From Roseibacillus sp. (lineage in GTDB: Bacteria; Verrucomicrobiota; Verrucomicrobiia; Verrucomicrobiales; Akkermansiaceae), in assembly GCA_051251855.1 (NCBI GenBank), contig JBPOGI010000001.1, positions 1,152,001 to 1,216,000 of the forward strand: a stretch of 64,000 nt of DNA, in the 5' to 3' direction. Under the pieces are notes generated by a model, which was not told the DNA's origin, did not search any database, and saw only the letters and a program-made list of their open reading frames with translations. Position 1 is the stretch's first letter. Each line of letters starts with the position of its first letter. Positions 5,814-9,438 of this stretch are shown in pieces. A program made the translations under genes and the position numbers.

Positions 5814-7436
5814 CTACTCCGCCTGATGAATTGTCACCTGGGTGAACGGAATGCCCCATTCCTTCTCATTACACACCTCAACACAAATCCGCTGAATCGC
5901 TCTCTTCAGCTTCTCATAGCGGTCCGCAGCCTCTCCTTTAAAGTCCGCCATAATGGCGTAATCCAGCGATGATGCCCCAGCAGACGCAAATTCAACATTC
6001 ACCGAGTTCAACTGCTCGCGGTCTGCTAATACCTCAACCAACCCTGCCGCTAACTTAGCCTTAAAAATCGCCGCGACCTCCGTCGTCGCGATTGCTTGAT
6101 GCGCATAGTCGATCCCGAATATCGCTTTCACTCGAAAACTCTTCGAAAGATTGGCCGGCGCCAGCGCCAGAAAGTCGGGAGTAAGATACGTCTCCCGCGT
6201 TCCTCCCAGTCGCACCAGCTGCACATACTCCGGAGTCTGCGTCACCACCTTACCCATCGCATCATTCGCCAGAACCCAATCTCCCGTCTTCGTCGGAAAC
6301 CACGATTCAGAAGGATCATGCGGACGGGAGCGAAGCGTGCTCAACCTCTTAATCGACATCCGAATCAATCCCCCCGTGAGTTCACAATTTCTCAACTCCG
6401 TATAAATCCCTATTGTTCCCACCTCCCACGGAACTCCCTCAAAGGTCAGTCGCTCTCCTTTTCTAACAGGACCCAAATTCAAGAGCATCTTCGTCTGCTC
6501 AAACGTCTTCGGAATCGTGCTCTTCGCCGTCCATCCCAGTCCCACTAGCAAGACGATCGCCAGAGTCAGCAGCAGCCAATCACCACTAAAATAGAGCACA
6601 AACAGAGCCGCTACCGCCGCCAGACCCCCCGAAATCACCACCGCGCTCAATTCCAGCAATCGCCAACCAAAGGCCCCATGATTCTGCTTTCGAACCAGAG
6701 GCAGCTTGCCAATCATACGCCACAACCAACGCAAGAAGAGCCAAGTTCCCGCCAAGGCGCCCACCGCCTTCAGAAGATTCAACCCTCGCCCTTTAAAGAA
6801 ACTCTCAAAAGCATCACTGACGGGCTTCAACACCGGCTCCTTCTCTGCCTCCTGCTGCTCCATCTGAACCGCCAAGGCTTCTAACTGCCCCTCGGCATCG
6901 TTCTGTCGTCCCTTCCACAATTCCCTCAACTCCTCGATCCGCTGCCCCGTTGACGACTCCGTGCCCCCGTTCCATCGAGAAAGACGTTCTAGGGCATTCT
7001 TGGCTAATTCAGCCTGTTCGCTCAGCCTTTGTTCGCGTGCCCTGAGCATCTCTGTTTCGCGTGGACGCTCAGTAGCCTTCTTCATCGCCCTCACCCCGGG
7101 TCGCAGAATTTCCTTCACCTCTTCTGCCAAATCTAAATTGGCCTCTTCCGCTGTTTTTAAGTCCTCACCCCGCACCCCCGTTGCCAGCTCATCGAATTGA
7201 TTCTTCAGCTCGTCGAGCCGGGCCGCCAACTCCGTCTCTCGCCCTTGGGCCGTTTCCACATCTTCCTGAGTGGTCTTCCCTCCCAACTTCACATCCCTTA
7301 CCAACGAAAGAGCGCTACTCGTGTCATCGATTACTCCCGCGAGTTTCACCAATGTCTCCGCCGTCTTATCATCAACCTCACTATCCGCCCATAGGAGCGC
7401 AAAGCTGAGAAACCAAAGGAAAAAAGGGACACGCAT
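5814..7436 (-). CDS. MscS-like mechanosensitive channel with a large coiled-coil N-terminal region
   Basis: Signal-like N-terminus, coiled coil, TM helices, GPVRKGERL, IFGIDY and GIPFTQVTIH C-terminus. Start uncertain (7436 or 7535). Confidence 0.7.
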   Translation of the reverse strand: MRVPFFLWFLSFALLWADSEVDDKTAETLVKLAGVIDDTSSALSLVRDVKLGGKTTQEDVETAQGRETELAARLDELKNQFDELATGVRGEDLKTAEEANLDLAEEVKEILRPGVRAMKKATERPRETEMLRAREQRLSEQAELAKNALERLSRWNGGTESSTGQRIEELRELWKGRQNDAEGQLEALAVQMEQQEAEKEPVLKPVSDAFESFFKGRGLNLLKAVGALAGTWLFLRWLWRMIGKLPLVRKQNHGAFGWRLLELSAVVISGGLAAVAALFVLYFSGDWLLLTLAIVLLVGLGWTAKSTIPKTFEQTKMLLNLGPVRKGERLTFEGVPWEVGTIGIYTELRNCELTGGLIRMSIKRLSTLRSRPHDPSESWFPTKTGDWVLANDAMGKVVTQTPEYVQLVRLGGTRETYLTPDFLALAPANLSKSFRVKAIFGIDYAHQAIATTEVAAIFKAKLAAGLVEVLADREQLNSVNVEFASAGASSLDYAIMADFKGEAADRYEKLKRAIQRICVEVCNEKEWGIPFTQVTIHQAE

Positions 7437-7532
7437 CAGCAGAAGAATAGAACCGAGCTCAATCAGCAACAAGACCCCAACCGAAAAAAAAGAGGCCGTC
7501 CTCCAACCGGAAGACGACCTCAGAAATTTAAA

Positions 7533-7555
7533 CACTGGCCGACCGGCCAGAAGTG
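7533..7555 (-). promoter_or_regulatory. Candidate SECIS hairpin for the YlbF-family gene
   Basis: Minus strand CA-CUU-CUGGCC-GGUC-GGCCAG-UG; the apical loop starts 22 nt after the TGA at 7566-7568. Confidence 0.55.
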
Positions 7556-7556
7556 A

Positions 7557-7997
7557 TTAGCAGCCTCATCCGCCGCCGCCGCCTTCGGCATCACCGCCAC
7601 CGCAGCAGCCGTCATCTTGAGAAGCAAAGTCCTCACTTGTCGGAACCCGCCCAAGCTCAAGAGTCATCCCCACATACTTGCCAATACTTCCCTGCAAAGT
7701 CTGCAGCGCCTGCTGAGCGTTCAAAAAGCTGGTCGCTACCGGATTTTGGAAAAGAGCTTCGCGAGCGGTCTCGAACTCCTTAATCTCAGTCTCTGCTAAC
7801 TGAAGACCAGCCTGCTGCTTCTGATTGAGTTCGTCGCCCCACTCCTGCACTTTGCGAAAGCCGTCACGAGCCGTATCATCCGCAAAAAATGCCTCTACAT
7901 CCTTCTGCAAAGCACTGAATTCGGCATCTCCAGCAATCGCCGCGCAAAGCTCGCGCGTCTTCTCCATAACAGGTGAACTGTCTTCCAAGATATTCAT
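7557..7997 (-). CDS. YlbF/YmcA-family regulator, candidate selenoprotein with C-terminal U-G-C
   Basis: Helical YlbF-like body with Gly/Cys tail DDGCCGGGDAEGGGGG-TGA-GGC-TGC-TAA. The ORF track stops at the TGA (7566). Confidence 0.8.
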
Positions 7998-8127: not shown

Positions 8128-9438
8128 ATGAACTCGAAGCCCATCGCCATCGCCTCAGTTTGGGGAATCTCCGTCGCCGCCGCTTTCTTTGCTGGCAAAG
8201 CCATTTCTCCCTCTGCCAACGAGTCCGTCGAGACCATTCAGGCGGCAAAATCTACTGCCAGCATCGGCAATGAAGGTTCATCCAACCTCGTCTCCACAGG
8301 AGGAAGCACCACCAGTATGGCTTCCGCCCGAGCCCGTCTCGACGCCGCTCCCATGATTGAGCGCGGCTCGACTCCCGAGCAAATGATTGAGGACATCGCC
8401 CGTTTTGATGATGCCATCGAGCGTAATAACGCCCTCCTCGCCCTCATCGATAGTCTCTCTCCCGACGAATTTCTCTCTGTTGTCGACTCCTTCAGACAGT
8501 TAGGCATCACCGACGAGCGAAGAGGCGAATACGAGATGCTCCTAACCGCATGGGCTAAGGTCAATCCTTCCGAAGCACTCGCCTACGCCTCCGAGAACAC
8601 CCGTGGTGGTTTCGCGCGCAACACCATTCTTTCCACTTGGGCAGCCACCAATCCTGACGCTGCCATTGCTTGGGCAGAATCCAACCACGACAATCCCGAC
8701 CGCGCAAATCCTTGGCTTGTAGGAGTCATCGAAGGCATCGCTCCCTACGATATCAGCCGGGCAACCGATCTCATGGAGACCCTTCCCCGTTCTGAGCAAC
8801 GAGGTGAAGCCCTCCGCAGTGTCCTCTCTCAACTCATGTCCAAGGACCCCGAAGATGCCAAAAACTGGACCTCCACCATTGAAGACGACTACCTTCGCTC
8901 TGGTGCCGCAGCCTACACCGCCGAAGCCATTGCTCGCAAAGACCCCGCCGATGCAGCCCAGTGGCTCGCAAGTCTTGGCGATGTCGATGCCCTTAATCGC
9001 GCTGGTGAGGACATTACCGAGGATTGGTATCGCGACAATCCGGAGGAAGCTACCGCATGGATCAGCACGCTGCCCCCCGAAGCCATGAGCGAAGCAGCCG
9101 AAGGAGTCGTAAGTAATATTGTTCGCGAAAATCCTGTCGAAGCTGCCGAGTATCTTTCTCAACTGGCTACTTCCAACCCCGATGCCAACTTCGACAGCGC
9201 CATCCGCGACCTCGTGCGCGGAGCTGGCCGCAGCGATCCAGAACTCGCCGCCATTTGGGTAGGTGGTCTCAGCAACAGCGACGACCAGAGCCGATACTAC
9301 CACCGCGTCTTGGGTGATTGGAAAAATAGGGACTCCGGAGCGGCCGAACAATGGATGATACAAAATGAAGCCAGCCTTCCCGAATCCATCGGACGCCGCT
9401 TCCTTGGCCGCCCTGACCAAAACAACGGAGGCCAGTAG
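8128..9438 (+). CDS. Membrane-anchored helical-repeat hypothetical protein
   Basis: N-terminal hydrophobic anchor and repeated W-x3-(D/N)P-x-AA-x2-W units. Confidence 0.8.
   Translation: MNSKPIAIASVWGISVAAAFFAGKAISPSANESVETIQAAKSTASIGNEGSSNLVSTGGSTTSMASARARLDAAPMIERGSTPEQMIEDIARFDDAIERNNALLALIDSLSPDEFLSVVDSFRQLGITDERRGEYEMLLTAWAKVNPSEALAYASENTRGGFARNTILSTWAATNPDAAIAWAESNHDNPDRANPWLVGVIEGIAPYDISRATDLMETLPRSEQRGEALRSVLSQLMSKDPEDAKNWTSTIEDDYLRSGAAAYTAEAIARKDPADAAQWLASLGDVDALNRAGEDITEDWYRDNPEEATAWISTLPPEAMSEAAEGVVSNIVRENPVEAAEYLSQLATSNPDANFDSAIRDLVRGAGRSDPELAAIWVGGLSNSDDQSRYYHRVLGDWKNRDSGAAEQWMIQNEASLPESIGRRFLGRPDQNNGGQ

Follow-up and report, generated by a model that had tools for sequence, protein, structure and literature searches.

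Does the TGA codon that closes a YlbF-like gene of Roseibacillus sp. (Verrucomicrobiota; Akkermansiaceae) end the protein, or is it decoded as selenocysteine (Sec), with the true stop three codons further on? The gene lies on the minus strand of a 64,000-nucleotide stretch of contig JBPOGI010000001.1 (assembly GCA_051251855.1, positions 1,152,001 to 1,216,000), referred to here as the window, and all coordinates below are those of the window. As usually called, it is a 143-codon open reading frame (ORF) running from 7997 to 7569 and closed by a TGA at 7568-7566. An earlier note on this DNA had proposed that this TGA stands in for the first Cys of a terminal C-G-C motif and is served by a hairpin in the 3′ untranslated region (UTR), acting as a selenocysteine insertion sequence (SECIS). 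Comparison of homologous sequences indicates, with a probability that we put at about 0.95, that the UGA is decoded as Sec. The features concerned are the following.

7557..7997, minus strand: Com_YlbF/YheA-like gene, 146 residues if the UGA is Sec, 143 as usually called
7662..7970, minus strand: Com_YlbF helical domain, residues 10-112, including Cys18 (Pfam match and homologue conservation)
7602..7607, minus strand: Cys131-Cys132 pair at the start of the flexible tail (Cys131 invariant in alignment A2)
7569..7601, minus strand: acidic Gly linker of 11 residues (comparison of linkers in Sec and Cys forms)
7566..7568, minus strand: in-frame UGA, putative Sec144 (reading of homologue tails)
7557..7565, minus strand: GGC TGC TAA, that is Gly145, Cys146, and the true stop (DNA and synonymous variation)
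7535..7550, minus strand: bacterial SECIS-type hairpin of 6 pairs with a GGUC loop, wholly in the 3′ UTR (fold, covariation, and spacing)
7484..7521, minus strand: intrinsic terminator-like site of 13 pairs with a T run, separate from the SECIS (hairpin 7521-7492; terminator scan)

The UGA codon and the tails of homologues

On the minus strand, the 3′ end of the gene reads GGC GGA TGA (7568-7566) GGC TGC TAA (7559-7557) TCACTT, followed by the hairpin CTGGCC GGTC GGCCAG (7550-7535), which bears out on the DNA (7568-7557) the earlier claim that GGC TGC TAA follows the TGA in frame. Read through the UGA, the gene encodes DDGCCGGGDAEGGGGG-U-G-C, a protein of 146 residues whose tail is CCGGGDAEGGGGG-U-G-C. 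Residues 10-112 match Pfam Com_YlbF (PF06133) with an E value of 1.7e-15 (57.8 bits against a gathering cut-off of 23.9), and a profile search returned this as the single Com_YlbF gene of the genome. The closest named relatives are Roseibacillus records, the top five having 78-90% identity; among the named records, those of Roseibacillus persicicus and R. ishigakijimensis have the Cys form. Gene callers had been expected to miss the Sec tail, and the Gly run is indeed where at least three database representatives (P0002, P0005, and P0096) end.

Searches located the gene in 217 of 221 genomes of the family and in 38 of 41 relatives across the order. Tails were read in the DNA of 170 genomes, comprising the 38 order relatives and the remaining 132 of the best 150 of the 217 family matches, with the 67 weaker family matches mostly outside this reading. 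Because the "1 TGA" flag of the genome searches proved unreliable both ways, marking true stops and missing G001, G062, and G167, all tail counts were taken from the DNA reading. TGA-Gly-Cys-(X)-stop ends the gene in 31 genomes, a Cys motif (mostly C-G-C) in 137, and something else in 2. In alignments, the UGA falls on the first Cys of the homologues' C-G-C, as the earlier note had it, and the aligned residue is Cys, never Trp. Of 60 true TGA stops, 0 have Gly-Cys behind them, and TAA or TAG before Gly-Cys, which would have spoken for a plain stop, occupies the UGA position in no homologue read. The codons after the TGA vary synonymously (GGC/GGT/GGA and TGC/TGT), all three stop codons occur, and the residues past U, only two or three in number, are all conserved across the 31 genomes and 20 metagenome loci. 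Haft and Gwadz, in the part of their account available, look for a UGA aligned with a conserved Cys, always as TGA, in at least 10 examples, with similarity continuing past U; each of these is found here. The codon in front of this position is GGA in 26 of 31 TGA forms, and in 8 of 115 cases where a Cys codon follows.

A genome without sel genes had been named in advance as a case against Sec; here selA (E 1.8e-112), selB (over the cut-off), selD, and a tRNA-Sec with the anticodon TCA are all present. The selD gene has an in-frame TGA of its own, within CAG-U-ASK, and a GCA-GGUCU-UGC hairpin lies downstream of it. Among the genomes with tails read, selB is present in 29 of the 31 with the TGA form, the other two having selA and tRNA-Sec, and the TGA form occurs in 0 of 86 other genomes lacking a selB match (5 candidates were scored per genome in the selB search, and a few of its negatives may be wrong). 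This agrees with the expectation that TGA-Gly-Cys-stop should be confined to genomes with sel genes. The motif alone is not rare, since the genome as a whole has 39 copies of TGA-GGN-TGY-stop; it follows 0 of the 633 long ORFs that end in TGA. As a separate observation, selA of genome G207 matches in two pieces, suggesting a frameshift or an assembly error.

In the proposed mechanism, SelB carrying Sec-tRNA would bind the GGUC hairpin that lies immediately beyond the true stop, and Sec would be inserted at the UGA (position 144) in a SelB-dependent manner, as comparative genomics suggests. Translation would then add Gly-Cys before ending, yielding a selenoprotein of 146 residues.

The hairpin and the exchange of Sec and Cys

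Between the UGA and the GGUC loop lie 21 nucleotides (nt), the loop beginning at the 22nd base as the earlier note had counted, and the hairpin folds with -10.9 kcal/mol. Of the structure described there, the 6-pair GGUC stem stands and is backed by covariation, whereas the lower stem with bulged pyrimidines is marginal and not conserved (the seventh pair out from the loop is mostly unpaired). A perfect stem of at least 5 pairs whose G-bearing loop begins 19-24 nt past the UGA is present in 30 of 31 TGA forms, the remaining one having it at 32 nt, against 9 of 115 Cys controls in the same test counted from the first Cys codon. In an alignment of 29 TGA-form tails, several rows of which are off register, two-sided changes occur in all 6 pairs. 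Covariation reached 0.589 compared with 0.203 for shuffled alignments, 0 of 500 shuffles being as high, and slid partners gave at most 0.211, a comparison in which the hairpin is favoured by having been chosen from the same sequences. A looser bacterial SECIS (bSECIS) rule, in a script version, is passed by 31 of 31 TGA forms, and the hairpin fits the published bSECIS model as far as the available part of its source gives it (PMC13188914).

The cleanest control for the hairpin is a metagenome scan with a 21-nt pattern consisting only of the codons for Gly-Gly-Gly-TGA-Gly-Cys-stop and holding no hairpin information. It gave 51 matches, of which 20 were ylbF genes, some of them near-duplicates; all 20 have a stem of 6-9 pairs with the loop at 20-23 nt. 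A stem (5 pairs) accompanies 1 of the 31 unrelated matches.

Two other readings of the UGA have to be weighed against Sec. If it were a true stop, the terminal C-G-C would have been lost by a TGC-to-TGA change, a matter of a single base, and the hairpin would be a terminator or a stabilising stem. TGA does serve as an ordinary stop here, ending 633 of 2812 long ORFs, and the consensus scan for terminators also marks the 6-pair hairpin as terminator-like. Yet Gly-Cys-stop is kept with synonymous changes in 31 of 31 genomes and in a 34%-identical homologue, and the TGA form is confined to genomes with Sec machinery. The hairpin, which the earlier note had considered as possibly just a terminator, covaries and tracks the TGA form, its G-loop lies at a fixed distance, and here a distinct terminator comes after it; we regard a true stop as very improbable. 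Still less credible is a UGA read as another residue without Sec machinery, whether Trp through a changed code or Cys. Recoding of UGA to Trp is known in some Verrucomicrobiota according to the available part of PMC13462651, but TGA closes ordinary genes here (3 of the 10 ORFs checked in the window) and both tRNA-Trp have the anticodon CCA, so that a UGA=Trp code is excluded; moreover, the sole tRNA with a TCA anticodon is called tRNA-SeC, and Trp is never the aligned residue.

Several observations nevertheless weigh against decoding as Sec. Two genomes with the TGA form (G192 and G207, drafts 96% and 94% complete, respectively) have no selB match, and Cys persists in 53 genomes that do have selB, which shows that Sec is not a requirement. 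The TGA forms come from five genera of a single family and one further, unplaced lineage, and by this kinship the counts are not independent. The lone hairpin is no stabler than shuffled sequences (z -0.43 to -0.95, three fragments without the terminator), so its support comes from conservation, and the looser SECIS rule is also passed by 21 of 70 Cys genes.

Exchange between Sec and Cys was followed on a tree built from 101 tail-less protein cores, which has few columns, a midpoint root, and a sample enriched for TGA forms. On this tree the Sec state changes 13 times, at least 9 of the changes being forced by well-supported branches; the Sec forms make up a single clade in 0% of bootstrap trees. 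A Cys form (L125, genome G185) reading CGA TGT GGC TGC TAA groups with the Sec forms and carries, just past its stop, a partly broken copy of the SECIS of its sister L117, which suggests a recent Sec-to-Cys reversion. The linker from CC to U has at least 8 residues in 29 of 31 Sec forms versus 5 of 106 Cys forms, and contains Glu or Asp in 30 of 31 versus 14 of 106. The difference in length holds within genera g1, g11, and g12, and in g33 for only 1 of 3 Sec forms. Three further Cys-form genes (L212, L217, and L129) have G-loop hairpins at 21-22 nt, possibly older SECIS relics or chance.

Beyond the family, the Sec form was seen in 0 of 30 further loci read, the frame of one of them (L296) being odd. 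Searching 401 genomes of the class returned 118 matches, and model R1, run over 150 other genomes of the phylum with 40 candidates scored per genome, gave two weak matches, neither of them a ylbF tail. Across 76 loci no conserved gene neighbourhood was found, synteny being at genus level only. Two distant Sec-form ylbF loci, L255 and L261, both among the 20 of the metagenome scan, share 34% identity with the query and have a GGUC hairpin; they could be assigned to none of the sampled genomes, and L255 comes from a marine metagenome contig.

Fold and possible role of the tail

The AlphaFold model (mean predicted local distance difference test, pLDDT, of 91) best matches structures of DUF964/YheA, RicA, and RicF (Foldseek, template modelling score about 0.5-0.55 by query length), and YheA matches with an E value of 4.6e-5. 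The query is thus predicted to have the same helical fold as YheA/DUF964 (PDB 2OEE and 2OEQ) and Bacillus RicA (YmcA) and RicF (YlbF). It further resembles RicF in its Cys-bearing flexible C-terminal tail, RicF having four tail Cys that end in C144-x-C146 according to the available part of PMC6751060. It differs from YheA, RicA, and RicF in the Sec of its tail, in its single copy, and in that RicT and RNase Y were not found beside it in the genome; the NCBIfam YlbF/YmcA equivalogs score it at about 20 bits, below their cut-offs of 130-200. This is a stand-alone helical protein of YheA/RicA type, by homology probably a homodimer, and its flexible tail has the form CC-(linker)-U-G-C. Cys18 in helix 1 (7944-7946, minus strand) is at least 90% conserved among 96 hand-picked homologues and might contribute to the tail site.

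The four tail thiol or selenol groups per chain and the His-rich endings of distant homologues, which close in Cys/His-rich tails, make binding of a metal or an iron-sulfur (Fe-S) cluster the leading idea for the tail. In Bacillus, a [4Fe-4S] cluster has RicF C134/C146 and RicA C141 as ligands, together with RicT (PMC6751060, in the part available). At roughly even odds, the four groups would bind a metal ion or Fe-S cluster here as the C-terminal Cys of RicF and RicA do, without RicT or RNase Y. Two points count against this role: the model has low confidence in the tail, with a mean pLDDT of 51-55 from residue 131 onward, and RicF C144, the first position of the terminal C-x-C, is dispensable for the cluster as reported in the same part of PMC6751060, which weakens a direct-ligand role for Sec. 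That the analogous C144 is no ligand speaks instead for a second-ranked and more tentative possibility, namely that Sec is inserted and U-G-C works as a redox switch or mobile reductant arm, through a selenenyl-sulfide of Sec144 with Cys146 or with the CC pair. The longer, acidic linkers of the Sec forms point the same way, as does the view, in the available part of PMC13188914, that most selenoproteins are redox proteins. This possibility is held back by the lack of an oxidoreductase fold among the Foldseek matches, by neighbours that include no conserved redox partner, and by the His-rich homologue endings, which favour metal binding. A tail role of any other kind appears unlikely.

The shared Pfam family and the fold common to YheA, RicA, and RicF might also suggest a role as in Bacillus, where a RicAFT/Y-complex activates RNase Y. 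Searches for RicT (PSP1) and for RNase Y, however, each found 0 of 41 Verrucomicrobiales genomes (this one and 40 relatives), against 6 of 14 control genomes over the cut-off, and the genome offers no second Com_YlbF paralogue; we consider such a role very unlikely. The link to RicAFT Fe-S binding drawn in the earlier note therefore survives as an analogy only: with no RicT or RNase Y, one Com_YlbF gene, and unconserved neighbours, the likeness to RicA and RicF concerns tail ligands at most, not membership of the Y-complex.

It is also conceivable, if improbable, that selenium supply sets the ratio of a CC...UGC form to a stable CC-only form, which would make this the first Sec-bearing Com_YlbF family and the protein a selenium- or metal-responsive regulator independent of RicT and RNase Y. 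A natural switch suggests itself because the SECIS is wholly non-coding and only three residues depend on read-through. If true, this freedom of the non-coding SECIS would explain the 13 Sec/Cys changes and the decaying SECIS in one Cys gene.

Known precedents and other genes of the genome

Com_YlbF is apparently a new, unlisted selenoprotein family on a regulator-type fold. It is not among the 119 families of a 2026 inventory (PMC13188914 Table 1), in keeping with the earlier note, to which YlbF was not known as a selenoprotein family; the main text of BSepDB, in the part available, does not mention YlbF, and no selenoprotein model of NCBIfam release 20 matches the query or 95 homologues. A full-text literature search, with subscription journals mostly outside its coverage, gave no paper combining YlbF and selenoprotein. 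Searches on selenocysteine with the family names returned none with selenocysteine among the matches listed, those on selenoproteins in Verrucomicrobia none on the Com_YlbF family, and a selenoprotein survey for Akkermansiaceae was not found in the literature searched.

The mechanism is known, with a C-terminal Sec and a hairpin past the stop as in SaoC, and the family is new. SaoC (NF040734) and KCU-star (NF033934) likewise carry a Sec at the very C-terminus that passes for a stop, and the G-loop hairpin past the stop codon of SaoC is a precedent for a bacterial SECIS in the 3′ UTR (10.1101/2022.07.06.499078, in the part available). These are unrelated families ending in Cys-Sec-COOH, whereas the query has Sec third from the end, in U-G-C, on a YlbF fold. 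A U-G-C motif is likewise present in a DUF1573 protein and a TlpA-like disulfide reductase (PMC13188914 Table 1), which have other domains, not Com_YlbF. The NCBIfam model matching most homologues is that of HcsL (halo-CC-star, NF041416), with 65 of 96 at E ≤0.01, the query being unmatched at E 0.01. From its name, we take HcsL to be a Cys-Cys-stop family of halophilic archaea; none of the literature matches listed concerned HcsL. It is absent from the selenoprotein table of the inventory (PMC13188914 Table 1).

Decoding as Sec would add a non-oxidoreductase fold to the bacterial selenoproteome, in Akkermansiaceae, and points to a blind spot of annotation: with a Sec only third from the end, gene calling loses next to nothing by stopping early, which keeps families of this sort hidden. 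Sister species carry natural Sec and Cys versions whose linkers differ in length to match; with these, the contribution of selenium can be tested directly, and they give a handle on what YlbF-like proteins do in bacteria lacking RicT and RNase Y. As a set of SECIS elements on which no coding constraint acts, the 3′-UTR hairpins are of use in refining the rules of SelB recognition.

Elsewhere in the genome, two paralogous thioredoxin-like genes (G000:C1:1584111 and G000:C11:42440, both plus strand) have an in-frame TGA in W-U-PPC and the same hairpin at 25 nt, and a peroxiredoxin-like gene (G000:C8:303832, plus strand) has TPG-U, followed at 23 nt by an 8-pair hairpin with a GUC loop. The labels are our reading of the motifs W-U-PPC and TPG-U. 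In all three genes the TGA sits at the active-site position, with hairpins at 23-25 nt; the two W-U-PPC genes likely encode selenoproteins of known kind. A genome-wide script for C-terminal Sec overlooked the ylbF gene itself, so its silence on other tails means little.

Next to the ylbF gene, a 436-residue protein without a Pfam or NCBIfam match is divergently transcribed (8128-9438, plus strand) and has repeat-like helical segments. On the other side lies a membrane-protein-like ORF of 573 residues (5814-7535, minus strand), likewise without a Pfam match, whose place downstream of ylbF is conserved within the genus. Since the GTG listed as its start overlaps both the SECIS and the terminator, translation probably begins further in.
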